17,746 bases of DNA from positions 1 to 17,746 of the forward strand of contig JBDLRP010000002.1 of the NCBI GenBank assembly GCA_039799905.1. Direction: 5' to 3'. Below, piece after piece: positions 1,227-17,314 of the stretch; within the stretch, counting starts at the first letter, position 1, and every line of letters begins with the position of its first letter. This stretch comes from Pseudomonadota bacterium (GTDB taxonomy: Bacteria > Bdellovibrionota_B > Oligoflexia > Silvanigrellales > Silvanigrellaceae). Under the pieces are notes generated by a model. It was not told the origin of the DNA and searched no databases. It worked only from the letters and a program-made list of their open reading frames with translations. Position numbers and translations under genes: made by a program.

Positions 1227-2132
1227 ATGACTCACTCCGATCACGTCACCCTTATCGAGGTTGGTCCGCGCGACGGATTTCAAAGTGAAAGCAAATTTAT
1301 TCCAACAGAAAGCAAACTGCGTTGGATTCGCGCGGCCTTGGCAGCCGGAAGCAAAGAAATTCAAATCACCTCGTTTGTGAACACCAAACTTGTTCCGCAA
1401 ATGTCGGACGCAGATGAAATCTGTGCGGCCATGATCTCTTTCCGCAAAGAGCATCCGCTTTTCGCAAACGTCACTTTCAGTGCGCTCGCCCTCAACAGCA
1501 AAGGCGTCGAGCGCGCCATCGCTGCAGGCATCGACGCCATCGATATTTCAATGTCGGCAAGCGACACACACTCTCAACGCAACACACGCCGCACCCAAGA
1601 CGAAGCCTATCAGGAACTCGTCTCCATGGTTGCGCTCGCGCGCTCCGCCGGGCTCAAGGTGCGTGCGGGATTACAATGCGCGTTTGGCTGCGCTTACGAA
1701 GGAAAAATTGCGCCGGCACAGGTGTTGGGATGGTTCGAAAAAATTGCTGCGCTCGCGCCGGACGTTTTGAGTTTGGCGGACTCCACCGGCACGGGGCATC
1801 CGCATCTGGTAAAAGAAATCGTCGGTGAATGCCAGACAATCGCTGGCGGCAAGCCCATCGTTCTTCACCTGCATGACACCTTCGGCCGCGCGATGGCCAA
1901 CCTTGTCACGGCACTTGATTTGGGAGTGCGACGCTTCGACACGTCGTTTGGCGGTCTGGGCGGGTGTCCGTTTATCGCTGGTGCCAGCGGAAACCTTGCA
2001 AGCGAAGACGTCGCCTCACTTCTTCACGACATGGGCTATTCAACCGGCATCAATGTTCCGGCGGTCATCAACATCCGTCACGAACTTGCGGAATTTCTTG
2101 GAAGAGATCTCCCCGCCAAGGCGCGGGGTTGA
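1227..2132 (+). CDS. HMG-CoA lyase family (DRE-TIM) enzyme; possibly (R)-citramalyl-CoA lyase-like
   Basis: EVGPRDGFQSE, HLHDT, GLGGCPF and GNLASED are hallmark HMG-CoA lyase motifs; 301 aa; SD-like AAGGGA upstream. Confidence 0.92.
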   Translation: MTHSDHVTLIEVGPRDGFQSESKFIPTESKLRWIRAALAAGSKEIQITSFVNTKLVPQMSDADEICAAMISFRKEHPLFANVTFSALALNSKGVERAIAAGIDAIDISMSASDTHSQRNTRRTQDEAYQELVSMVALARSAGLKVRAGLQCAFGCAYEGKIAPAQVLGWFEKIAALAPDVLSLADSTGTGHPHLVKEIVGECQTIAGGKPIVLHLHDTFGRAMANLVTALDLGVRRFDTSFGGLGGCPFIAGASGNLASEDVASLLHDMGYSTGINVPAVINIRHELAEFLGRDLPAKARG

Positions 2133-2138
2133 ACTGCG

Positions 2139-3368
2139 ATGCACGCGCAAACAATTGTCGAAAAAATTCTCTCAGAAAAAATCAAACGTGACGTGCGTGC
2201 AGGCGACCTCATCACTTGCCCTGTGGATCTGTGCACTGCCAGCGACACAACAGCTCCGCTGGCCATCCGTTCTTTTGAACAGATGTTCGCTGACACGACG
2301 CAGGCACGGCTCGCAGATCCGCAAAAAGTTGTACTCGTCATCGACCACGCCGCACCGGCGCCCAACGAGCGCATTGCAAATCTGCATAGCTTGATGCGGC
2401 AATTTGCGCGCATGCATGGATGCAGGATCTACGAGAGCGGTGAAGGAATCATTCATCACATTGTTTATGAGCAGAAATTCGCCCCTGCCGGCTCAGTTGT
2501 TATGGGAGCAGACTCCCACACAACCACCTACGGTGCATGGGGATCATTCGCCGCAGGCATTGGCTCCACGGACGCCGCTGCGGTTTGGAAAACCGGCCAC
2601 ACGTGGCTGAAGGTTCCGCCCACCATCCGTATCGAACTCAACGGCAATCTGCGCGACGGAGTGTTTGCCAAAGACATCATGCTGCACCTGCTCGCGCAAT
2701 TGGGCATGCAGCAGGCAAATTATCACGCGCTCGAATTCGCCGGCGATACCATCGCGCAACTTCCGATGTCTGAACGGATTACTCTTGCAAACATGACCGC
2801 CGAGCTGGGCGGCAAGGTCGGCATCGTTGAATGTGCACAGTCTGTTCAGGCAGATGCGCATGCCGACTACGCAAAAATCGTGCAGGTGGATGTGTCGCAG
2901 CTCGAGTCGCAAATCGCACTTCCAAACAGCCCTGCAAATGGCCGTCCGCTGGCTGAACTCTCCGGCAAGCCCGTCAATTTTGCTTTTCTAGGCACGTGCA
3001 CCAACTCGCGGATTGAAGATCTGCGCATTGCGGCTGCGATTGTTCGCGGGAGAAAAGTTGCCGACGGAGTGCGGTTCTACATTTCACCTGCGTCACGGCA
3101 GACACTGCTGCAAGCCACCCGCGAAGGTGTTTTGGAAACCCTGCTCGATGCAGGCGCCACATTGCTGGCAACAGGCTGTGGCCCGTGTGTCGGCACACAC
3201 ATGGGCGTTCCGGCCGATGGCGATGTTGTGATTTCTTCTGGGAACCGCAACTTCGCAGGCAGGATGGGCAACCGCAACGCGCAGGTCTATCTCGCCTCTC
3301 CCGCCGCAGTAGCGAGCGCCGCACTGAACGGCTGCATCAGCATTCCTTCGCTCGGGAGACAGCCATGA
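2139..3368 (+). CDS. leuC: Aconitase-family [4Fe-4S] hydro-lyase large subunit (short LeuC/HacA/DmdA type)
   Basis: TIVEKIL, IDH, GADSHT, GTCTN, GCGPCVG (three cluster Cys), NRNFAGRMG and YLASP; 409 aa. The symbol denotes the family only; the context argues against leucine biosynthesis. Confidence 0.92.
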   Translation: MHAQTIVEKILSEKIKRDVRAGDLITCPVDLCTASDTTAPLAIRSFEQMFADTTQARLADPQKVVLVIDHAAPAPNERIANLHSLMRQFARMHGCRIYESGEGIIHHIVYEQKFAPAGSVVMGADSHTTTYGAWGSFAAGIGSTDAAAVWKTGHTWLKVPPTIRIELNGNLRDGVFAKDIMLHLLAQLGMQQANYHALEFAGDTIAQLPMSERITLANMTAELGGKVGIVECAQSVQADAHADYAKIVQVDVSQLESQIALPNSPANGRPLAELSGKPVNFAFLGTCTNSRIEDLRIAAAIVRGRKVADGVRFYISPASRQTLLQATREGVLETLLDAGATLLATGCGPCVGTHMGVPADGDVVISSGNRNFAGRMGNRNAQVYLASPAAVASAALNGCISIPSLGRQP

Positions 3369-3856
3369 CAATGCGCGCGCACGTCTATGGAGATTCCGTC
3401 GACACCGACAGAATCATTGCCGGCAAATACACCAAGACACTCGACATGAACGACCTAGCCAAGCACGTGATGGAAGACCTTGATCCTCAATTCACAACTC
3501 GCTTCCGTGCGGGTGATGTGGTTGTTGCAGGAGAACATTTCGGTTGCGGATCGTCACGCGAACAAGCGGCGCTCGCACTCAGAGCAGCTGGCGTCAAAGC
3601 GGTCATCGCCAAATCATTTGCGCGGATCTTTTATCGAAATGCAATCAATGTCGGATTGCTGGTCATAGAGATTCCTCATCACGAAATCCGGCAGGATGAT
3701 GAACTCGATGGCGAATTCGCAAAGGGAATCGTTCACAACCTGACTCAAAACAAAGCCTACACAAGCAATGCTTTGCCGCCGGTCATGCTGGCGATTGTCG
3801 AAGCAGGCGGACTGGTTCCCTTCCTGCGCAATGGAGGTTCCTTTGAACAACTCTGA
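3365..3856 (+). CDS. leuD: Aconitase-family hydro-lyase small subunit (LeuD/HacB/DmdB type)
   Basis: GDSVDTDRII, FGCGSSREQA, SFARIFYRNAINVG and GGL. The ATG at 3365 overlaps the large-subunit stop (ATGA) with SD GGGAG at 3354; 163 aa. Confidence 0.92.
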   Translation: MTMRAHVYGDSVDTDRIIAGKYTKTLDMNDLAKHVMEDLDPQFTTRFRAGDVVVAGEHFGCGSSREQAALALRAAGVKAVIAKSFARIFYRNAINVGLLVIEIPHHEIRQDDELDGEFAKGIVHNLTQNKAYTSNALPPVMLAIVEAGGLVPFLRNGGSFEQL

Positions 3857-5078
3857 AGGCAAGCCGCTCGCGGCCATCCGCGTGCTTGATCTCACCCATG
3901 CGGTGATGGGCCCTTGTGCAAGTCTGATGCTGGCCGACATGGGTGCCGATGTGGTCCACGTCGAACCGCCTGAGGGTGATCCCACGCGCTCGCTCAAGGG
4001 TTTCGGAATGGGTTACTTTCCCTTCTACAACCGCAACAAAAGAAGTCTTGCCGTCGACCTCAAAACAGCCGACGGACTCGCCGTGGTGCACGCACTGGCC
4101 AAACGCTGCGACGTGTTCATCGAGAACTTCGGTCCGAACACCGCCGACAGGCTCGGACTTTCCTATGCAACTTTGCGTGAACTGAATCCGCGCATTATTT
4201 ATTGCTCTCTCAAGGGTTTTCTCTCAGGCCCCTACGAAAACCGCCATGCGATGGACGAAGTTGTTCAGATGATGGGCGGGCTTGCCTACATGACAGGGCC
4301 ACGCAACCAGCCTTTGCGTGCCGGAACTTCGGTGGTCGACATCACCGGCGGAATGTTCGGTGCCATGGGTATTCTTGCCGCTCTCTTCGAGAGAGAGAAA
4401 AGCGGAAAAGGTAAACTCATCCGCTCATCACTGTTCGAAACCACTGCGTTCCTCATGGGACAGCATATGGCCTATTCGGCACAATCGGAGACGCCGATTC
4501 CACCGATGCCCGAGCGGCAGAGTGCTTGGTCTGTTTATCAAATCTTCACCGCAAAAGACGACCTGCCGGTTTTCATCGGCATCATCAGCGACAGGCATTG
4601 GCAGCGTTTCTGTGAAGCCTTTGCGCAAACCCAATGGGCAACCGACAGCAGGCTTGCAACCAACAACGGCCGTATTGCTGAAAAAGACTGGTTTCTGCCG
4701 GCAGTCACGGCTCTGATGGCACAATTTGATCGTGCAGAAATTGCGACCCGCTGCGAGCGTTTCAACATTCCATTTGCTCCGGTGGCCCGTCCGGAAGACC
4801 TCTTCACCGATCCGCAACTCAATCAGTCCGGACGCCTTTTGCCGGTTGAATTCAACGGCAAACAAACAATGCTCCCGGCACTGCCGATTGAATGGGACGG
4901 CCAGATGCCCGAGCTCAGCCGTCATCCGCCGCTCATTGGTCAACACACAAACGAAATACTGAGCGAGCTGGGATTTTCGCACAGCGAAATCGAAAGACTC
5001 CGCACCACAAACTCCGTGGCGTGTGCTTCGGCAGCTCAGCAGACATCCGCAGAAATGCAAGGGAGACAGCCACAATGA
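3843..5078 (+). CDS. CaiB/BaiF (family III) CoA-transferase
   Basis: PLAAIRVLDL, LADMGADV, NRNKRSLAVDLK, ENF, catalytic Asp in AMDEVVQ, and PPLIGQHT. Start set at TTG 3843 (GGAGG at 3833-3837); ATG 3831 is an alternative. Confidence 0.92.
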   Translation: MNNSEGKPLAAIRVLDLTHAVMGPCASLMLADMGADVVHVEPPEGDPTRSLKGFGMGYFPFYNRNKRSLAVDLKTADGLAVVHALAKRCDVFIENFGPNTADRLGLSYATLRELNPRIIYCSLKGFLSGPYENRHAMDEVVQMMGGLAYMTGPRNQPLRAGTSVVDITGGMFGAMGILAALFEREKSGKGKLIRSSLFETTAFLMGQHMAYSAQSETPIPPMPERQSAWSVYQIFTAKDDLPVFIGIISDRHWQRFCEAFAQTQWATDSRLATNNGRIAEKDWFLPAVTALMAQFDRAEIATRCERFNIPFAPVARPEDLFTDPQLNQSGRLLPVEFNGKQTMLPALPIEWDGQMPELSRHPPLIGQHTNEILSELGFSHSEIERLRTTNSVACASAAQQTSAEMQGRQPQ

Positions 5079-6535
5079 CAATCACATTCGATCACATCAT
5101 CAAAGGCGCGACGGTCGTCCGTCCGCACCAGCCTGCTCCCGAGCAACTCGACATCGGCATCAAAGACGGCCGCTTCGCCGCGCTGGCTTCCAACCTCGAT
5201 CCGGCCACTGCAAAGAGTGTTACCGACGCGCGCGGACTGCTCGCATTTCCGGGGCTTGTTGACGCGCACATGCACACAGGAATCTATGCGCCACTCGATA
5301 AAGACGCGCGCAACGAAAGCCGCGCCGCCGCAATGGGTGGCGTCACCAGCAGCCTCAACTATATCCGCACGGGTCAGTACTACCTCAACAAAGGCGGCCC
5401 ATACGAAGATTTCATGCCGGAGGTGCTGTCGCTTTCTGAAGGAAATTATCACGTCGACTACGCTTATCATGTAGCCCCGATGTCGGCCTCGCACATCGGC
5501 GAAATGCCACTGCTGCTCGAGCGTTTTGGAGTTTCTTCGTTCAAAATTTTCATGTTCTATGGGAGTCATGGTCTGCACGGCTGTTCTCACAAGCAGCACG
5601 AATTTCTCATGATCGGGGAAGACGAGCGATACGACATCGCCCACTTTGAAGCCGTTATGCGCGGACTCAAAAGTCTTGCCGACGCGCGCCCCGACAAACG
5701 CAACGCGCTCTCACTCAGCCTGCATTGCGAAACCGCCGAGATCATGACCGCATATACAAAAATGGTCATGCGCGAGGGCAAGCTCTCGGGACTTCCGGCG
5801 TACAGCGCATCGCGTCCGCCCCACTCCGAGGGACTCGCAATTTTCATAGCATCTTATCTCGCCAACGAAACAGACTGCGTGAATATCAACTTGCTGCACC
5901 TGACTTCCCGCAAGGCAGTTGATGCTGCGCTCAAGATGTCGGTGGTGTTTCCCAACATCAACTTCCGCCGCGAGGTGACCATCGGCCATCTGCTGCTCGA
6001 CACCGACGCTCCCAACGGCATTTATGCGAAAGTGAATCCGCCGATTCGCCCGCGTGAAGATGTCGAATATTTGTGGGAAGCCGTGAAGAACGGCCACATC
6101 GACTGGATCTGCTCCGACCACGCCTGCTGTTCGGAAGAGCTTAAAACCGACAAGCAAAACCCGACCGACGTCTTCATGGCGAAAAGCGGATTCGGCGGCA
6201 CGGAATACCTGCTCTGTGGTCTGCTCACAGAAGGACGCAAACGCGGACTTTCACTCAACCGGATGGCAGAGCTCGTGTGCAGCGCTCCGGCAGAACGCTA
6301 CGGACTGGTCAATAAAGGTCACATCGAAGTTGGATTTGATGCCGATGTCGTGCTTGTGGATCCCAACAAAACTTGGGTCATTGATCCCAAAGACTCTCCC
6401 TCTGCGCAGGGCTATTCACCGTTCACGGGAATGGAGCTCACGGCACAAGTTCGACAAACCTTTCTGCGCGGCGGGCTAATATACAAAGACGGCAACGTCA
6501 TTGGCTCACCTCAGGGTCTCTACCTCAAAAGATGA
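5075..6535 (+). CDS. Cyclic amidohydrolase (allantoinase/hydantoinase/dihydroorotase/imidase superfamily)
   Basis: PGLVDAHMH (HxH), FKIFM (carboxy-Lys), HCE, HLT, KVNPPIR, SDHA, and KGHIEVGFDAD. The ATG at 5075 overlaps the upstream stop (ATGA); 486 aa. Confidence 0.9.
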   Translation: MTITFDHIIKGATVVRPHQPAPEQLDIGIKDGRFAALASNLDPATAKSVTDARGLLAFPGLVDAHMHTGIYAPLDKDARNESRAAAMGGVTSSLNYIRTGQYYLNKGGPYEDFMPEVLSLSEGNYHVDYAYHVAPMSASHIGEMPLLLERFGVSSFKIFMFYGSHGLHGCSHKQHEFLMIGEDERYDIAHFEAVMRGLKSLADARPDKRNALSLSLHCETAEIMTAYTKMVMREGKLSGLPAYSASRPPHSEGLAIFIASYLANETDCVNINLLHLTSRKAVDAALKMSVVFPNINFRREVTIGHLLLDTDAPNGIYAKVNPPIRPREDVEYLWEAVKNGHIDWICSDHACCSEELKTDKQNPTDVFMAKSGFGGTEYLLCGLLTEGRKRGLSLNRMAELVCSAPAERYGLVNKGHIEVGFDADVVLVDPNKTWVIDPKDSPSAQGYSPFTGMELTAQVRQTFLRGGLIYKDGNVIGSPQGLYLKR

Positions 6536-8010: not shown

Positions 8011-8922
8011 ATGCTGCGGACATTGATCAAGCGAATTGCCTTGCTGTCGTTGTGTCTCGTATCTGCCGAATTGGCAAACCAAACCCTGAATGCTGCATCG
8101 GCGGATGCTAACCCCGACGTTCCCGCCCATCAGAAACGTGAAACCGAACTGCGTCTCGGACTCACTGAAGAAGGCTTCAACATTCTTTTCAACCGCTGGT
8201 GTGCGCATCTGGAGGCCAGCCGACGCACCGACAGCTACTTTGACGTCTTCGAAGGAGAACAATTTCTTTTTCGCAGGCAGGAGCCGAGGGCAAAACTGCG
8301 CATCCAGACGCGCGACAAGGAACTCGTTGCACAAAAGTCGTGGGTTATTGAAAGCCACACCACACAGTCCTCCGGATTTCTGTGGAGTGCGACAACCCGC
8401 ACAGCAGCGAGTGAAAAACACCCGCTCGGCGGCAAAACCCACGCCCGATTATCTTCAACTCTGCAACTGCTCGATGACGCAACTCAGAATGTTGCAAAGC
8501 CCGATGGACTTACGGCTCAACTGCAAATGCTGTGGTCGGTGCAGTCGTGGCCTGCTCATGCCGATTTCGACGACGGCACGCGCCATCTGCGCGGACCGCT
8601 CGTTCCCGCAGCCGTGGTCAGCAAAGAGCGCTGGCTCATTCCCGTGACGCTGCCCGACGGCAGGACGGGTCAATTGCAACTCGGTCGTGATTACGACGAA
8701 CTGACTGCCGACAGGTCAGTCAGCTTCGAACTTGAATTGGAACTTAAGAACACGTCGGTAGCGGATGAACAGGCCACCCTTACGACCGTAAGCAGATTCC
8801 TCCTGCTGCAGGGGCTCCGCCCGCAAAACACAACCTCACAAAAAACAAACGATTTCTTCCGAACACTGGAAAATCTTTACTCGCAAGCAGGAGATTCGCT
8901 TGTGAACCCGAGCTCTCTCTGA
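8011..8922 (+). CDS. CYTH (triphosphate tunnel metalloenzyme)-like protein with N-terminal signal peptide
   Basis: ETELR (ExExK-like), TDSYFD, KLRIQTR and FELELELK occur in CYTH order. The N-terminus is basic then hydrophobic, ending ...AASA; SD GGAGAGG. Confidence 0.65.
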   Translation: MLRTLIKRIALLSLCLVSAELANQTLNAASADANPDVPAHQKRETELRLGLTEEGFNILFNRWCAHLEASRRTDSYFDVFEGEQFLFRRQEPRAKLRIQTRDKELVAQKSWVIESHTTQSSGFLWSATTRTAASEKHPLGGKTHARLSSTLQLLDDATQNVAKPDGLTAQLQMLWSVQSWPAHADFDDGTRHLRGPLVPAAVVSKERWLIPVTLPDGRTGQLQLGRDYDELTADRSVSFELELELKNTSVADEQATLTTVSRFLLLQGLRPQNTTSQKTNDFFRTLENLYSQAGDSLVNPSSL

Positions 8923-10349: not shown

Positions 10350-10415
10350 GCAACTTCTCAATCCCGCACCTCCCCGCAATACTCGCTGGTGACAAGCTCG
10401 GAAAGGAGCATTTTT

Positions 10416-11156
10416 ATGACGGCATCACTGTTGGCAATACTCAGGCTGAGCGTGATCGTCCTGCTGACTCTGCTGTTGATAGTCATTCTACTTGTCACTC
10501 CGACAGGTCTCAGAACGCGCACCAAGGTGTCGTCCCGTTTTTTTGGAATCCTGCTGCGCTGCTGCGGAATCCGCATCAACTGCAACCTGTCGGACGCAGA
10601 ACTGCTGCGTTTCGAGCGTGCCATTATTGTCGCCAATCACGTCAGCTATTTGGATATTCTCATTCTCTGTGCACTCCGGCCATGCGTTTTTCTGGCCAAA
10701 AAAGAAGTCGGTGATTGGCCGCTGTTTGGTTGGGCTGCGCGTGCTCTGGGATGCATCTTCGTCAGGCGCGAATCACTGATGGGTCGTGCGCACGCGCTTC
10801 GTCGATGCCTCAGGATCAGTCCGACTGCCGACATTGCGCTTTTTCCAGAGGGGACGACAACGTCATCCAGACTGCCCGAGCTCACCGCATGGGCCCGCGG
10901 GCATGCATGGATTGCCCTGCGTGGACGCGTCGATGCGATCCTCTGTTTGCGGCTAAATTATGAAAACCACAGCGAGAGGGCATGGATCGACGACCATAGC
11001 CTTTTGCCTCACCTGCTCAAAACGCTCGGCCAAAAATCAGTGCGGGTGACAGTGTCAGGAGCATGGGTCGCGGTTCATCAGTCGCTGCAGCCTGCAGACC
11101 TCGCAATCAATACTTTTGAAAACGTTTGCATGGCGGTGAGCTATGACAGTCCTTGA
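10416..11156 (+). CDS. PlsC-family acyltransferase, probably lyso-ornithine-lipid O-acyltransferase (OlsA-like)
   Basis: ANHVSYLD (NHx4D), FLAKKEV, IFVRR, FPEGT and an N-terminal membrane helix. SD AAGGAG precedes ATG 10416. OlsA specificity is inferred from the nearby olsB. Confidence 0.88.
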   Translation: MTASLLAILRLSVIVLLTLLLIVILLVTPTGLRTRTKVSSRFFGILLRCCGIRINCNLSDAELLRFERAIIVANHVSYLDILILCALRPCVFLAKKEVGDWPLFGWAARALGCIFVRRESLMGRAHALRRCLRISPTADIALFPEGTTTSSRLPELTAWARGHAWIALRGRVDAILCLRLNYENHSERAWIDDHSLLPHLLKTLGQKSVRVTVSGAWVAVHQSLQPADLAINTFENVCMAVSYDSP

Positions 11157-12099
11157 AGATATCCGCACCTTTTCGAGCAAGTACCGCAACGACATCATTC
11201 ACAGCAGGCTGGAGACCATCTCATGCGATGAAGGCAGTTTTGATATCGATCTGCTGGAAATCAAAACATCCGACAAAGTCCGCAAGGACAAATTCACATT
11301 TTTCCTCGTCGCGGGTGTGCACGACCTGGAAACCATCGGAGTGACGGTTCTCCTCCATTACTTGGCACACCTCATCGAACTGACACGCTGGAACAAAGCA
11401 TTCCGCAATTCACTCGCAAGCGCGCGTATTGTCGCAATTCCGGCGCTGAATCCGACGGGAATCATCCAACGCCGCCGTGCCACTGCAGAAGGGATCGACT
11501 TGATGCGCAATGCACCTGTTTCGGCAGAAAAGCCGGTGCCACTCTTGGGCGGTCACAGGCTTTCCCCAATGCTGCCGTACTACAGCGGCACAGGCGATCT
11601 GGCTCTTGAGAGCAGCGCACTGATACGCGCAGTGCGCGACCTATTGCAGTCTTCCAAGGGTATGATTGCACTCGATCTGCACAGCGGATTCGGGGCTCGC
11701 GACAGAATCTGGACACCGTGGTCGATGTCATCTGCACTGCCGCCGCATTGGGACCATTACAAAGCCATCGAGACTGCTCTGAACGAATCGTTTCCGGATC
11801 ACGTCTACAAATTTGAAAAACAGTCCGAGAGCTATCAGACGAACGGGGATTTGTGGGACTATCTGTTACTTGAGAATCAGAACACCAACGGACCGCTTTT
11901 CCTCCCGCTGGCGCTGGAAATGGGTAGTTGGAACTGGCTCAAGAAGGCGCCTTGGAACGCATTCAACAGGCTGGGATGGTTCCATCCGATGGTTCCGCAC
12001 AGAGTGCAAAGAACCTGCCGCAGGCACACCACACTGCTCGATTTTCTCGTCAGCGTGTGCGCCAATTCCGAAAGCTTCTTCAAACACGAGGTCAGCTGA
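11143..12099 (+). CDS. M14-family zinc carboxypeptidase / amidohydrolase (DUF2817-like)
   Basis: GVHDLE (HxxE), LNPTG, DLMRN, DLHSG and LALEMG (catalytic Glu). No signal peptide; overlaps the acyltransferase stop by 14 nt. Confidence 0.85.
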   Translation: MTVLEDIRTFSSKYRNDIIHSRLETISCDEGSFDIDLLEIKTSDKVRKDKFTFFLVAGVHDLETIGVTVLLHYLAHLIELTRWNKAFRNSLASARIVAIPALNPTGIIQRRRATAEGIDLMRNAPVSAEKPVPLLGGHRLSPMLPYYSGTGDLALESSALIRAVRDLLQSSKGMIALDLHSGFGARDRIWTPWSMSSALPPHWDHYKAIETALNESFPDHVYKFEKQSESYQTNGDLWDYLLLENQNTNGPLFLPLALEMGSWNWLKKAPWNAFNRLGWFHPMVPHRVQRTCRRHTTLLDFLVSVCANSESFFKHEVS

Positions 12100-12913
12100 A
12101 CAAGGACCGGCGGCATCGGTCAGACATTGTCGCTGTCGAGAAGTGCATCAGGAAGTCGTGACAGTGGAATTCAGGATCGTGGGATGGCCCCCCAAGAATT
12201 TTTGCTCCGAGCATAAGATATGATCTCAGCAGCGGAGGCACCAAAGACTTCAAATGAGCTTCGTCGAACTCTCCGGCTTCGACAGAAGGCATTTTTAGAG
12301 CCGGGCAATGCACATCTTCCGACCATGCACCCTGCCTTTTGAAATAGCCAACCAAAGCGGCGGCTTCCGCATGAGAGACGTTGAAGACGCTGACACAACC
12401 CACGGCTTCAGTTCTGTTGTGACTGGTCATGTATTTTGCCAATGCGCTCCAGAGCAATTTAGGAATTGAACCCTGCCGGTAGGAAGGGTGCACACAACTG
12501 CGGCCCAATTCGATTGTCAGGCGAGGTTCGAGTAGCTCTCTCAAAGGTCTTACATCAAACTCGTGAGCCGCATAGAGGTTCAATCCGCCGCTCAGTACTC
12601 TGTCAGTCGGCAGCACTCGGTAGGTTCCCACGATGCGACCATCGTGCTTCACAATCAGATGGTCGGCGAATGCATCGTGCACATCCTGATCACGCATCAT
12701 CTTCGGAGATTGATCGTGCGCCGACAGAAAAACATCGTAGCGAAGAGAAAAAACCTCATCCAGCTCGTGCGGCAGTGCCAAACGGACTTCAAATTGGGCA
12801 TTGCTGCCTGAACTCTCTTGGTTGCGGAAGTTCTGCTGCTGCAACGCTGGAACAGCCCTGAATTGACGAACCGCCTCAAAAGAAGCTGCGGCGTTTGCAT
12901 AGCCTGTGCTCAT
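12092..12913 (-). CDS. olsB: GNAT-fold N-acyltransferase, ornithine-lipid OlsB family
   Basis: LRYDVF, DQDVHD..ADHL, VGTYR, ELGRSCVHPSYR, LLW, GCVS, PPLLRSYL.LGA and P..DPEF.C.D; SD GGGAGG. Confidence 0.85.
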   Translation of the reverse strand: MSTGYANAAASFEAVRQFRAVPALQQQNFRNQESSGSNAQFEVRLALPHELDEVFSLRYDVFLSAHDQSPKMMRDQDVHDAFADHLIVKHDGRIVGTYRVLPTDRVLSGGLNLYAAHEFDVRPLRELLEPRLTIELGRSCVHPSYRQGSIPKLLWSALAKYMTSHNRTEAVGCVSVFNVSHAEAAALVGYFKRQGAWSEDVHCPALKMPSVEAGEFDEAHLKSLVPPLLRSYLMLGAKILGGPSHDPEFHCHDFLMHFSTATMSDRCRRSLFS

Positions 12914-12977: not shown

Positions 12978-13074
12978 ATTGATTACGAAAAAGTGAATGA
13001 TTTCTGAAGATGATGGCTTCACAATTTTGTCAAAAATGCGCTCATGACAATTGGCTGTGAAACGATTGTGTCAG
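12978..13074. promoter_or_regulatory. Divergent olsB/pstS control region with Pho-box-like repeats on both strands
   Basis: Plus strand: GCTTCACAATT TTGTCAAAAAT (TTCAC 13018, GTCAA 13029). Minus strand: TTCAG (13008), TTCAC (12997), GTAAT (12986) at 11-bp steps, and GACAC (13072)/TTCAC (13061). Confidence 0.55.
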
Positions 13075-13146
13075 GCTTGCCCGCCTGCGGAATCGATCGC
13101 TATGAGCCTTTTCGTCTTGAAGCAAGACACACTCAGGAGGTTAACA

Positions 13147-13968
13147 ATGCGTCTTATCACTACTGCTCTTCTTGCAACTGTCAGCACATCTGCGTTTGCC
13201 GCTCCCTTCACTTTTAAAGGCTCCGACACATTGGCGGGAATGATGACCGATGCCATTCAAGCTGCGGGTCTCTCCGACGAGATTCAATACGCCGGCGGCG
13301 GCTCAGGCAAAGGCGAAGAAGCCATCATTGCAGGGCAACAAGGCATCGCACCGATGTCACGTGAATTGAAAAAAGAGGCCGTTGCAAAGGCAGCAGCTGC
13401 CGGAATTGAAGTTGTCGCTCACCCCATCGCTCTCGATGGCCTTGGTGTTTTCGTCAACAGCAGCAACCCGCTCAGCCGCCTCAGCCTGCCACAGGTCAAG
13501 AGTGTTTTCACTTGCGAAGTAACCGACTGGTCGAAGCTGCCTAACTCTGGCAAAACAGGACCTATTGAAGTTTTCCGTCGTGACGACAACTCTGGCACTA
13601 CCGATACGTTCAAGTCCATCGTCGGAATCAAAACCTTCGGTGCCTGCGTTCAGGTGATGGCTGAAACAACCGATATCGCCAACGAAACAGCGACCAATCC
13701 AAATGCGATTGGCTACGCAGGACTGACTGCAACGCGCGCAGGCAACCGTCCGCTCACACTTTCCAAAGACGACCGTTCGGGTGCTTATCTGCCAACAGTG
13801 CACAACGTGCGCAACAAGCTCTACCCGCTTGCACGCACACTCTATGTATACGAAGCAAAAGGCAGCTACTCGCTCAATGCGGCTGAGTCGAAGCTTCTTC
13901 CGCAAGTTCTCGATCGCTCGTTCATGGACCCGATTGTTCAGCAAAACGACTTCATCACATTGGACTAA
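13147..13968 (+). CDS. pstS: Phosphate-binding periplasmic protein, PstS family
   Basis: KGSDT, GGGSGKG, IALDG, RDDNSGT, NAIGY and YPLARTLY. Signal peptide ends AFA; SD AGGAGG at 13135-13140 supports ATG 13147; 273 aa. Confidence 0.9.
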   Translation: MRLITTALLATVSTSAFAAPFTFKGSDTLAGMMTDAIQAAGLSDEIQYAGGGSGKGEEAIIAGQQGIAPMSRELKKEAVAKAAAAGIEVVAHPIALDGLGVFVNSSNPLSRLSLPQVKSVFTCEVTDWSKLPNSGKTGPIEVFRRDDNSGTTDTFKSIVGIKTFGACVQVMAETTDIANETATNPNAIGYAGLTATRAGNRPLTLSKDDRSGAYLPTVHNVRNKLYPLARTLYVYEAKGSYSLNAAESKLLPQVLDRSFMDPIVQQNDFITLD

Positions 13969-13974
13969 TCCATC

Positions 13975-16704
13975 ATGAAGAAACATCTGCGTTTCCTGCT
14001 TGGATGCGTGGCCGTTTTAACACTCGTCGGATGCGAGGGAGACAACTCTTCCTCGTCATCCGACGAGGTTATTTCAATTTCGGCGCCACCCACCAACCCT
14101 GATTCACCCGCACTCGACAACCCGTCCAACCGTTCCGGTGAACCGACGCTGGCGGCAGACACCGAGTGCAGCGAGCCGCGCACCAGCGCCTTGCTGCCAG
14201 CCATCGTTGAAAATGAAAACAACGTACAGCCGACGATGTCGTTTGAGGAACTCAAGCAACAAATCGACACCGCCTGTGCCAGCTGCCATCTTGCTCCCGC
14301 GTCGAAGACGGGCGGATTTTGGTATGCCTCGTCACATGACAAGGCCGAGGTGCGTTTCAACGGTCAGAAGGTTGTTGTCGCAGGACTCGCAGACACTGCA
14401 GATGTTCTGCAGAAGGTATTGTCCAATAATCGGATGCCGCCACAAAACATGCGCGCCGCCGCCCCACAAAAATACACCCGCCTGCAAAGCCTGCTGGAAG
14501 ACTGGATCGCTGCCGGCAAACCAGCCGGTCGCTTTCCAATAAAGTTGGATGCCGACTCAGCAAAACAAGCCGCAAGGCAAAAACAATCCGATCTGGGCAG
14601 CTGTATTCCGCGCACCGATCAAATCGGTGTTGATGCTGAAAAAGACGAACTCTTTTTGAATGCCACACAGCTTCCTGAAAAGCTCTCACAGACTGATTTG
14701 TTCACGCTCGACAGCCTCGCCCTCGCACGCAGAGGCACGCTCTCTTACAACGTGGAATATCCGCTGTGGGCAGACAACGCCGAAAAAGGCCGCTATGTTC
14801 ACTTCCCAGCTGTGTGGGACGAGGCAAAACAAAAATGGAAGCCCTCGGGTGCACGCTATGACCCAGTTTCCAAACAGCTTGAAATTCCACCCAACACGCG
14901 CTTCTACAAGACCTTCTACAAGGCTGTAAAAAGCAAATCTGGCGAAACTCTCTTCCGTAAGGTTGAGACGCGCATTTTAGTGGTCAGAAAGTCTCCTCAA
15001 GAGCCCCTTCTGGGCAGCTACAAATGGAACGAGACGGAGTCCGAGGCGACACTTGTCACACTGCCTTATCGCGACGGTACGCCTTTCAAAGACGACATCT
15101 TCAAAATTGTCGTTGATGAAAATACTGGCAAGACAAGAAAATATGCGATTCCCGGCAAACAGCGCTGCGTTGAATGCCACAAAGGTACCGACGATTACGT
15201 GCTCGGCTTTACGCCCTTGCAACTCAACCGTCGGCCTTTCGGTGCGGCCGGCCGCGATCGCGACATCGGGGCCGATGAAGTGAGCCAGATTGTCCGCTTC
15301 ATTGATGCCGGAATTCTCAACAACGTCAGCAGCGCAGCTGAATTGCCTGTTCTCGAAGATTCAAACGGCCGTCAGGCGCGAAATGTTCACGAAACCCGGT
15401 TGCAGGGCTACATGGTCGGCAACTGTGCGCATTGCCACAATCCCGACGGTTTCGCGATGAAAGACAACAAAGTTGCGCTCGACCTGCGCGAAGGGCAGCT
15501 GTTTGATTTCGACCTGCGCCGCATCACCCGCGACTCAACCCGCAGCAGCCCCAAATATTTCGCAAAAGCCGGTGACCTCAATCAGAGCCAACTCTACCTG
15601 CGCGTTTCAGCATCCAAAATTGGCGATGGCGGCCGCTATCTGCCGATGCCGATGCACACTCCGGGCGACGCCAACTGCAAACTGCTCAACCTCACTGCCA
15701 AGTGGATATATTCATTGTCGTCTGATCCTACTGTCGCAGCAAAGGCGGATACCGAACCGATAGCATGCGAACCAGACGATGATTTTCATTGGGTTGACCT
15801 CGACATGACGTGGCCAAATTCAAAAGACTTTGTGCCCCGCAGGGCCGACTGGAAAGATCCCGTGAACGGCATGCCGGCCAAATTCGCGGCGTTGGTTCAG
15901 GATCCGCGGCTTACGAAAATTCTTCGCACCCAAGTGCCTGTTGATTTTTGGGAGCGGGTTGCAGATGCGCAAGGGAAACCCGTTGCAAAATGTGATTTCC
16001 CGCCAAAAACACCGCCGCGAAAACCTCCGGCATGGATGCTCGATAACAAAGGCGCGCTTAAACAACCTGCCAATGAGCTCTATACTCTGACTCCGGGCGC
16101 GCATTTCTACAATTCCACCTGCGCCAAGTGCCACGGCAACACAGCCGACGGCAGATCGGGTCTGGCAACCAACCTTCTCACACTCACCGGTGGTTCGATT
16201 CGCGTTGCCAATCTCAAAGACGGAATGTTCGGGCCAGGCAACGACAAGATATTCGAAGTCCCCGATTCGCGCGGCAAGACACGCAATCTGCTCGGAAACT
16301 ACCTCATCTGGATGGCCATGGAAGGAACGCGCGTCACCTTTCCGCCGGAAATGGAACCATTCGTAGGCCGTCACAAGGCACAGATGCTCAATCAGCTGCG
16401 TGAGCGTTGCAAAAACTTCATCGCGAGCTCGCCGCAAAAAGCGACCGACAGGATGAAGGACTACCTTGCTTTCAAAGATGTGTGCTTCTTCAACAACGGC
16501 AAGCCGACAGACAGGCAGCTGCAGTTTGACCCCAACACAGATCAGCCTATCAATCCGGCTGCGCTGGAAGCTTGGGCAGACAAAGCTGCCATCAATGTCG
16601 GCTGGGCGATTTATGACTACATGAAGAACGAAGGCGCGGCCGGAAAATGGCAACCCGCAAAAAACGAGTGCGACAAAGTGCACCCGTTGCGTCCTGCGCA
16701 GTAA
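13975..16704 (+). CDS. Large tetraheme c-type cytochrome lipoprotein with a central SO2930-family-like diheme module
   Basis: Lipobox LVGC (Cys20). CxxCH at aa 101 (CASCH), 398 (CVECH), 484 (CAHCH) and 716 (CAKCH). Central motifs LSQTDLF, PLWADNAEK.R, KTF, ETRIL, YKW, YAIP, NCAHCHNP and MP. Confidence 0.85.
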   Translation: MKKHLRFLLGCVAVLTLVGCEGDNSSSSSDEVISISAPPTNPDSPALDNPSNRSGEPTLAADTECSEPRTSALLPAIVENENNVQPTMSFEELKQQIDTACASCHLAPASKTGGFWYASSHDKAEVRFNGQKVVVAGLADTADVLQKVLSNNRMPPQNMRAAAPQKYTRLQSLLEDWIAAGKPAGRFPIKLDADSAKQAARQKQSDLGSCIPRTDQIGVDAEKDELFLNATQLPEKLSQTDLFTLDSLALARRGTLSYNVEYPLWADNAEKGRYVHFPAVWDEAKQKWKPSGARYDPVSKQLEIPPNTRFYKTFYKAVKSKSGETLFRKVETRILVVRKSPQEPLLGSYKWNETESEATLVTLPYRDGTPFKDDIFKIVVDENTGKTRKYAIPGKQRCVECHKGTDDYVLGFTPLQLNRRPFGAAGRDRDIGADEVSQIVRFIDAGILNNVSSAAELPVLEDSNGRQARNVHETRLQGYMVGNCAHCHNPDGFAMKDNKVALDLREGQLFDFDLRRITRDSTRSSPKYFAKAGDLNQSQLYLRVSASKIGDGGRYLPMPMHTPGDANCKLLNLTAKWIYSLSSDPTVAAKADTEPIACEPDDDFHWVDLDMTWPNSKDFVPRRADWKDPVNGMPAKFAALVQDPRLTKILRTQVPVDFWERVADAQGKPVAKCDFPPKTPPRKPPAWMLDNKGALKQPANELYTLTPGAHFYNSTCAKCHGNTADGRSGLATNLLTLTGGSIRVANLKDGMFGPGNDKIFEVPDSRGKTRNLLGNYLIWMAMEGTRVTFPPEMEPFVGRHKAQMLNQLRERCKNFIASSPQKATDRMKDYLAFKDVCFFNNGKPTDRQLQFDPNTDQPINPAALEAWADKAAINVGWAIYDYMKNEGAAGKWQPAKNECDKVHPLRPAQ

Positions 16705-16709
16705 TCACT

Positions 16710-16750
16710 CGCTCCGCTCATGTACGAGCGAAGCGGAGGCACTTTTATTT
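16710..16750 (+). terminator. Hairpin between convergent genes, possible terminator
   Basis: CGCTCCGCTC-atgtac-GAGCGAAGCG (9 of 10 pairs) followed by GAGGCACTTTTATTT. Confidence 0.4.
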
Positions 16751-17314
16751 ATCCAATTTAACAAAGCAGCCCATAAAGATTTCCGACGTGTCGATGCCGA
16801 CCGTCGGATCTTTGTATGACAAATATGCGTTCAACATCGACGCGCCCTCGCCATCGTTCTCGGCGCGAATTTCCAGATCATAAATCTCACGAGACTTTCC
16901 ATTCATTTCTGCAAAAACCTCAATATCGAACTTACTGCCCTTGAGGTCCATTTCAAGATCAAGCATGCGCTTGCTGACTTCGTGTGAGAAGAGCTGGTAC
17001 TTAGCCAGATCGGGAGTCAACTGGTTGGGAACCTGCGAGGGGTTTTCTTTATTTGCAAACGCTTCAACCACCAATGCTTCCAGCTTGCCGCCGTTGATCG
17101 TCGCGCGTGTTCGGACGAAATTCAATTTCGAATCGACTCCGGCACATTCGAGCACTCCACGCTCTTTCTCAAGAGCATGAACGCTGCGCGCCGCCTCAGA
17201 TTTACTATAGTCAATTCCTCCTGATTTATCTTTCTTGCCGCTTAGTTCTGAAGTCTTAACCTGACACGCGGTCGCAAGGAACGATGCAGTCAAAAAGCAA
17301 GTCATGAGTTTCAT
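16745..17314 (-). CDS. Hypothetical lipoprotein
   Basis: SD GAGGAG precedes ATG 17314; MKLMTCFLTASFLATAC is a lipoprotein-type signal; 189 aa; no recognisable domain. Confidence 0.8.
   Translation of the reverse strand: MKLMTCFLTASFLATACQVKTSELSGKKDKSGGIDYSKSEAARSVHALEKERGVLECAGVDSKLNFVRTRATINGGKLEALVVEAFANKENPSQVPNQLTPDLAKYQLFSHEVSKRMLDLEMDLKGSKFDIEVFAEMNGKSREIYDLEIRAENDGEGASMLNAYLSYKDPTVGIDTSEIFMGCFVKLDK

Follow-up and report, generated by a model that had tools for sequence, protein, structure and literature searches.

Why does a gene for a PstS-like phosphate-binding protein stand directly before a gene for a four-haem cytochrome? The question is raised by contig JBDLRP010000002.1 (C2 in our numbering; GenBank assembly GCA_039799905.1) of a Silvanigrellaceae bacterium, all 17,746 nucleotides of which form the window analysed here, and which belongs to a 3.38-Mb genome that is 93.8% complete. 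A first-pass annotation, made from the letters alone, had noticed the pair and proposed a phosphate-starvation redox module, for example one that releases phosphate bound to Fe(III) by reduction or converts an oxyanion of phosphorus or arsenic. We find that the PstS-like gene and the gene for the tetraheme lipoprotein form a conserved two-gene module. Its sequence features lead us to propose, with confidence somewhat short of even, that the module encodes an envelope redox enzyme induced by phosphate starvation and equipped with a dedicated phosphate-binding partner. The features of the pair are the following.

13147 to 13968, plus strand: gene for an exported PstS-like phosphate-binding protein of a cytochrome-linked subfamily, 273 amino acids (PF12849, E 5e-30).
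13975 to 16704, plus strand: gene for a tetraheme c-type cytochrome lipoprotein, 909 amino acids, with PSCyt1-like monohaem, SO2930-type dihaem and C-terminal class-I-like monohaem domains.
14275 to 14289, plus strand: CxxCH motif of haem 1, residues 101-105, with Met154 as candidate distal ligand (motif in 62/62 homologs, Met154 in 61/62).
14674 to 15618, plus strand: dihaem domain of the SO2930 family (TIGR03806), residues 234-548, with haem 2 (398) and haem 3 (484).
16120 to 16134, plus strand: CxxCH motif of haem 4, residues 716-720, followed by the invariant Met780 and Met804 (PF13442, over its cut-off).

Both open reading frames, the phosphate motifs and the four CxxCH motifs are present as first described, with a gap of 6 nucleotides between the genes, and the pair has neither a permease nor an ATPase gene among its neighbours in the window. 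The module had been taken to occur "instead of pstCAB", which the genome contradicts: a full pstSCAB set lies on another contig (C1, 135050-141294), with all four genes over their NCBIfam cut-offs. The pair is thus an addition to the transporter, not a replacement for it.

How general is the pairing? We searched 131 genomes of the phylum and found a match to the cytochrome profile in 34, of which 29 have the full family and five the SO2930 domain only. A PstS-like gene is adjacent in 26 of the 29 Oligoflexia genomes with the full cytochrome (25 within one locus, plus G113, which is split by the assembly and has the cytochrome start directly behind its partner). Both gene orders occur, the reverse one in six genomes that all belong to one genus. 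As for the remaining three genomes, in G067 the contig runs out 35 bases beyond the gene, and in G029 and G034 the two genes are on different contigs. These 29 genomes are not independent, as 13 belong to one genus. Conversely, of the 32 genomes in which the PstS-like subfamily is represented, 27 contain the cytochrome, while five, at 73-97% completeness, show only SO2930-level matches or none. The adjacency on which the first-pass annotation staked its proposal is thus borne out.

Metagenomic contigs extend this picture. Among the best 80 of 326 metagenome loci (a few of them near-copies), the partner is present in 10 of 13 loci of the short type, to which the window belongs, and in 29 of 60 loci of a long type, which combines a tetraheme protein of 1200-1350 amino acids with a PstS-like protein of 540-890. 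With the count restricted to loci flanked by 4.5 kb or more on each side, the figures become 5/6 and 12/12, while none of the seven stand-alone SO2930 loci has the partner. The long-type contigs are probably myxobacterial, judging from their GC content (56-75%) and from the source names of similar proteins; all the source names encountered in the analysis were metagenome-derived. Size class agrees between the two proteins in all 30 complete pairs, two of which come from high-GC loci and have both proteins in the short form, and their pairwise distances are correlated (rho 0.72 overall, 0.61 for the short forms). Finally, no match to pstC or pstA was detected in loci L001-L140, compared with 26 of 30 canonical pstS loci.

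The PstS-like protein has a signal peptide, read by eye, and motifs GSDT (25-28), GGGSG (50-54), PMSR (69-72) and RRDDNSGT (144-151). The accessible text of PMC5381212 gives nine phosphate-contacting residues for Clostridium perfringens PBP-1 (S11, T12, S13, S41, S59, R125, S129, G130, T131), to which S26, D27, T28, S53, S71, R145, S149, G150 and T151 correspond, six positions by direct alignment and the three N-terminal ones by motif. Seven of the nine are identical and one is a conservative replacement, while the last is Asp, the residue also present in PDB 4omb and 4pqj; by this comparison, the phosphate pocket is intact. The pocket residues are kept in 70-71 of 71 homologs, taken from the 121 available, and so are Arg144, Asp153 and the Cys123/Cys167 pair, which are the subfamily's own invariants and are absent from the canonical PstS proteins examined. 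Identification as PstS therefore holds for the pocket and the PF12849 family, which the protein shares with PstS of the PstSCAB transporters (PDB 4omb, 4pqj, 4q8r) together with the contact residues and the promoter motif described below, but not for the TIGR02136 subfamily: the protein scores 139 bits, under the cut-off of 206.6, whereas the other PstS of the genome scores 238. It further differs from canonical PstS in its invariant Cys pair and its separate branch, short and long module forms being set apart from 12 canonical PstS proteins with support 99 in a quick unrooted tree of 53 proteins. The module protein was never found beside pstC or pstA, having a cytochrome partner instead.

The long PstS-like forms are larger by 300-600 residues, mostly Cys-rich, and usually keep the pocket motifs. 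Two of them, in L082 (413-3079) and L111 (800-3280), have no Cys at all (20-43 in other long forms) and a degenerate pocket, and may bind a different ligand. We also looked for fusions among 117 long PstS-like proteins (120 among 196 matches, minus three OmpA or kinase fusions): none has more than one CxxCH motif and two have one, which argues weakly against a PstS-cytochrome fusion.

The cytochrome begins with a lipobox (Cys20), carries its CxxCH motifs at 101, 398, 484 and 716, and contains a long low-complexity linker. Its PSCyt1-like domain (101-157) is a weak match (E 0.004), and the region of haem 4 has CcoP-like matches in PDB (E 2e-5). Between them, the central domain matches TIGR03806 with E 4e-35 and 121 bits, under the cut-off of 313.3. 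There are 573 homologs at E≤0.001 among 8000 scored candidates, named 'hypothetical' or 'mono/diheme cytochrome c' in the databases. All four CxxCH motifs are invariant in the 62 aligned homologs, picked from 120 listed matches. In an alignment of 35 proteins, Met154, Met558, Met780 and Met804 are invariant in short and long rows, and no His outside the CxxCH motifs is equally conserved in both groups, which makes the four Met residues candidate distal haem ligands.

The central domain shares 27 invariant columns, including two CxxCH motifs and a distal MP motif, with other SO2930 dihaem cytochromes (six module and eight non-module domains compared). The module proteins differ from that family in their two extra haem domains and in a cluster of arginines near haem 2 (Arg388, 397, 419, 420 and 441), present in 5/5 other module rows versus 0-2 of 8 non-module rows. 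Where SO2930 domains outside the module were examined, they either adjoin a beta-helix protein or form a fusion with a dehydrogenase of PQQ type. In place of the TIGR03805 beta-helix partner of others, found for example beside stand-alone locus L115, the module has the PstS-like protein; TIGR03805 was detected neither beside the pair in the window nor among the recurring neighbours of the module. Three plasmid records have a match, in each case to the SO2930 domain only. The SO2930 family is uncharacterised in the literature we found: in the accessible text of PMC4837345, SO_2930 appears only in a localisation table. Sequence searches of PDB with the pair returned only short haem-motif matches and one weak profile match, of the haem-3 region to FoxE (E 0.004 over about 90 residues), the periplasmic dihaem Fe(II) oxidoreductase of foxEYZ (PDB 5mab). 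A predicted model of FoxE described in the accessible part of PMC10654088 gives its haems distal Met ligands, one of them from a distant part of the chain, a likeness to the ligands suggested here. The module nevertheless differs in lacking FoxY and FoxZ, in the threefold length of its lipoprotein and in its phosphate-binding partner.

Iron-reducing haem wires are dense, bis-His, low-potential proteins, and His/Met haems tend to be high-potential. Set against a stacked bis-His chain, the sequence here suggests Met ligands and separate haem domains. This bears directly on the reductive chemistry originally suggested, in which the cytochrome would reduce Fe(III) minerals at the surface of the cell, leaving the freed phosphate to be captured by its binding partner. 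The lipoprotein with its long linker would suit such a function, and a Cyc2-like haem porin, recalling the Cyc2 and MtrCAB conduits, is found in or near the operon in at least seven loci, while a Porin_5 gene follows the pair in L044. Four haems for about 890 residues, placed one or two to a domain, and invariant candidate ligands that are Met and not His are nevertheless a poor fit. Neither MtrB nor a decahaem protein was found in this approximately 94%-complete genome (the profile search for MtrB covered this genome alone). The Cyc2-like porin, present in 48 of the 131 genomes, was not found in this genome, in the 32 genomes of its family or in 21 of the 29 module genomes, and is thus an accessory of a minority of loci. 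The missing MtrB in the genome and missing Cyc2-like porin in the family argue against an iron-reducing haem wire, and we regard mineral reduction as quite improbable.

Are the two genes controlled by phosphate? The region upstream of the pair contains these elements.

12092 to 12913, minus strand: divergent gene for an olsB-like GNAT acyltransferase, a candidate for amino-lipid synthesis (NF052555, E 1e-30, below cut-off).
13017 to 13034, plus strand: forward Pho-box-like direct repeat with an 11-bp period (family-model score 13.8; 99th percentile of 2541 genes, 13.6).
13056 to 13073, minus strand: inverted Pho-box-like direct repeat, the stronger of the two, which immediately precedes the putative -35 (family-model score 16.8, tenth of 2541).
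13077 to 13106, plus strand: putative -35 and -10 elements, read by eye, conserved in upstream regions of the genus.
13135 to 13140, plus strand: ribosome-binding site, read directly from the sequence.

A Pho-box-like repeat had been reported upstream of the pair, and the forward one is probably the repeat in question. A consensus promoter scan did not pick up the -35 and -10 elements at 13077-13106; a sigma-54 promoter was considered by eye and rejected, its spacing being wrong. De novo motif discovery in the upstream regions of 29 canonical pstS genes (30 minus one without a start) recovered a repeat of 11-bp period. This motif scores 8.8-15.4 before the cytochrome gene in the nine short-type loci of the same families where that gene comes first or alone, with 7/9 at a shuffle p≤0.05 (5/7 after dropping two near-copies). 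Upstream of the PstS-like gene, 6 of 26 loci pass, and none of these is from Silvanigrellaceae. Because this model, built mostly from other families, missed even the canonical pstS genes of Silvanigrellaceae, we constructed a family-specific one from 12 canonical pstS promoters (13 minus one near-identical to that of this genome). Among 2541 genes, it ranks the held-out canonical pstS first and the promoter of the pair tenth. Scores of 14.1-18.2 are obtained in 11/11 loci of the genus, and the motif is found in 1/2 other loci of the family and 0/3 distant ones. The best site is the inverted one, shared with the divergent olsB-like gene, and it is kept in four genomes in which the upstream gene is co-directional. 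Other high-ranking sites are mixed, including those of olsB-like, EEP-family nuclease/phosphatase and acr3-arsC genes, and a hand-written repeat pattern did barely better than its control (27 vs 19). The genome has a PhoB-like gene (C24, 61342-62157; 223 bits, below the cut-off of 296). For olsB of Acinetobacter, the accessible text of PMC11419095 gives a predicted Pho box and induction when phosphate is limiting. PhoB control of the short-type module is likely, given the promoter motif.

One of the top-ten sites lies on contig C15 (398-9010; L193, L209), surrounded by acr3-arsC, phoX and a glycosyltransferase-type gene pair, homologs of which adjoin the module in L041 and L042.

How might the module work? 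Phosphate starvation would switch on both genes, probably as one transcript, as a dedicated envelope module. The lipoprotein would be the redox enzyme, with haem 2, beside the module-specific arginine cluster, as the likely site of reaction, and three or four His/Met haems would carry electrons, in one direction or the other, between the enzyme and an external partner, for example the respiratory chain, O2 or peroxide. Its PstS-like companion would not be a transporter subunit; positioned at the enzyme and perhaps in direct contact with it, this protein would bind phosphate itself or a substrate that bears phosphate, trap phosphate freed from an otherwise unusable source and hand it to the ordinary PstSCAB. 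The chemistry would most likely be oxidative rather than reductive. Such a phosphate-starvation redox module, which is the part of the original proposal that we retain, is favoured by the linkage of the two genes, their matched size classes, the intact pocket, the absence of permease genes, the pstS-type promoter motif and the conservation of haem motifs and Met residues; its Fe(III) and arsenic variants are not.

Several observations weigh against this proposal. With four invariant Met residues for four haems, all haems may be six-coordinate, which would leave no open catalytic site. No conserved substrate gene emerged near the pair in our neighbour scans. The PstS-like gene occurs alone in five genomes, two of them 94-97% complete, the cytochrome lacks its partner in L048 and L049 (metagenome loci with long flanks or near-copies), and G029 and G034 hold the two genes on separate contigs. 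The correlation of distances disappears within the long type (rho 0.18, p 0.16), and relatedness is a confounder for the short and long correlations alike. The promoter motif is not enriched before long-type genes (7/36 and 3/17, vs 23/136 in controls). Lastly, phoX, phoD and phnD-like genes fail the family model (ranks 1272, 575 and 838 of 2541), which is why we only infer the regulator of the motif.

Could the two genes simply answer to the same signal? An extra scavenger serving PstCAB and a cytochrome with a separate task under starvation, such as peroxide removal or an electron sink, would stay together because they have one phosphate-starvation promoter in common. Consistent with this, where the two are apart or in reverse order, either gene comes with a promoter motif of its own, and two of the five genomes with the PstS-like gene alone have it beside phospholipase C or PLD-like genes. 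An orphan canonical-type pstS 4-5 kb from the pair in G108, G113 and G114 points the same way. Mere co-regulation accounts less well for the persistence of the pair across lineages while olsB-like, CYTH-like, YceI, porin and DUF4397 genes come and go, for the joint enlargement of both proteins in the long type, and for invariants proper to the subfamily (Arg144, Asp153 and the Cys pair), unseen in canonical PstS. We consider it unlikely.

The orphan pstS genes (G108, L135:2023-3015; G114, L175; G113, L179) have no adjacent pstC or pstA, and their loci show that orphan pstS genes and small phosphate islands with two binding proteins do occur. In L121 and L123, a PstS-like gene without cytochrome adjoins PLD-like and phospholipase C genes.

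An intact pocket with no transporter nearby would also suit a sensor, in which the binding protein signals periplasmic phosphate and gates an electron route through the cytochrome, no phosphorus chemistry being involved. The four Met residues could occupy all four haems and make the protein a pure relay, and a precedent exists in AioX, a periplasmic oxyanion-binding regulator beside a redox operon (PMC3834237, accessible text). However, neither a kinase nor a chemoreceptor nor any other gene for an output was found to be conserved near the pair, and a lipoprotein without a membrane-spanning output would be a poor signalling device. We hold this explanation to be improbable.

The same part of PMC3834237 describes arsenic islands (aioXSRBA-cytc2 with pst1/pho) in which pst genes, AioX and a cytochrome c surround the molybdoenzyme AioBA. 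Like the module, these islands bring together an oxyanion-binding protein, a c-type cytochrome and phosphate-starvation control; unlike it, they have AioBA as catalyst and pstS with pstCAB. They recall the suggestion that arsenic oxyanions, which compete with phosphate when Pst is induced, are what the module oxidises or reduces. Its pocket has Ser where PBP-1 also has Ser rather than the selectivity Asp, and PBP-1 discriminates against arsenate only about 150-fold (both from the accessible text of PMC5381212); in addition, an acr3-arsC pair adjoins a top-ten motif site in this genome. However, ordinary PstS proteins of the same type share the Ser pattern, no ars or aio gene was present among the 109 selected neighbours scanned, and a search of this one genome for AioA (TIGR02693) found none. 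Arsenic conversion is thus left without direct support, and we judge it very improbable.

Returning to the proposed redox enzyme with its phosphate-binding partner, which other genes accompany it? A YceI gene, a dihaem protein gene, a Cyc2-like haem porin gene or a Porin_5 gene follows the pair in some loci, and DUF4397 genes flank it in others. Since these accessory genes are present only in some loci, the two-gene unit is the conserved core. In this genome, tblastn found neither the Cyc2-like porin, the dihaem protein, Porin_5, DUF4397 nor S26, and gave only a weak YceI match. Of 43 loci that extend far enough to show one (L053-L113), 25 have an S26 signal peptidase gene after the long cytochrome, often between it and the long PstS-like gene; the peptidase is possibly a dedicated processing enzyme. 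In L045, L047 and L052, which are high-GC loci, DUF4397 stands beside the cytochrome, and L052 has two PstS-like paralogs of intermediate length with 13-14 Cys.

Downstream, the unit ends as first described, at a hairpin and a convergent gene whose end lies at 16745.

16708 to 16738, plus strand: hairpin (-15.4 kcal/mol, z -2.3) that probably serves as terminator and separates the pair from the convergent gene.
16745 to 17314, minus strand: convergent gene, encoding a small lipoprotein that matches nothing in Pfam or NCBIfam and belongs to no known family.

The hairpin is a modest one, as 8 of 200 shuffles fold equally well, and is followed by a T-rich run; a terminator scan did not list it. 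The small-lipoprotein gene is convergent in four relative loci as well. On the other side, the olsB-like gene, which has its promoter region in common with the pair and is near it in most compared loci of the genus, belongs to a group of genes (10374-12913) that also encodes a PlsC-type acyltransferase and an M14 peptidase, a candidate cluster for amino-lipids, that is, phosphorus-free lipids; the whole cluster remains close to the pair in most of these loci. Farther away, positions 8011-8922 encode an exported protein of 303 amino acids without Pfam match, the motifs of which we take to be CYTH-like, and whose gene is immediately upstream of the PstS-like gene in several relatives. The genes at 1227-6535 form a catabolic cluster with no relation to the pair (presumably HMG-CoA-lyase-like, aconitase-type large and small subunits, CoA-transferase and dihydroorotase-type amidohydrolase, judging from their motifs).

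The pair was not described in the literature searched, which left most subscription journals and all supplements outside, and its organisation matches no system found in our searches. The module is thus apparently undescribed; its novelty lies in the organisation, the chemistry being only proposed. It may represent a class of envelope redox enzymes with a phosphate-binding subunit, present across Bdellovibrionota and Myxococcota, in which phosphorus is freed by haem chemistry, although we hold this broader claim more loosely than that made for the pair itself. Phosphate is usually scavenged by hydrolysis (phosphatases, nucleases), by C-P lyase, by cytoplasmic oxidation of reduced phosphorus and by high-affinity transport. 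Many predatory and soil-dwelling bacteria not yet in culture inherit the two genes as a unit that phosphate starvation apparently controls, and this suggests that their acquisition of phosphorus includes a redox step so far undescribed. With only two proteins, the pair is also a compact way into the SO2930 cytochrome domain, itself uncharacterised, to which the proposed role, if true, would give its first function. A redox route would then join the known means of phosphate scavenging, and would do so in predators of fresh water and soil, in which phosphorus economy has been little studied.

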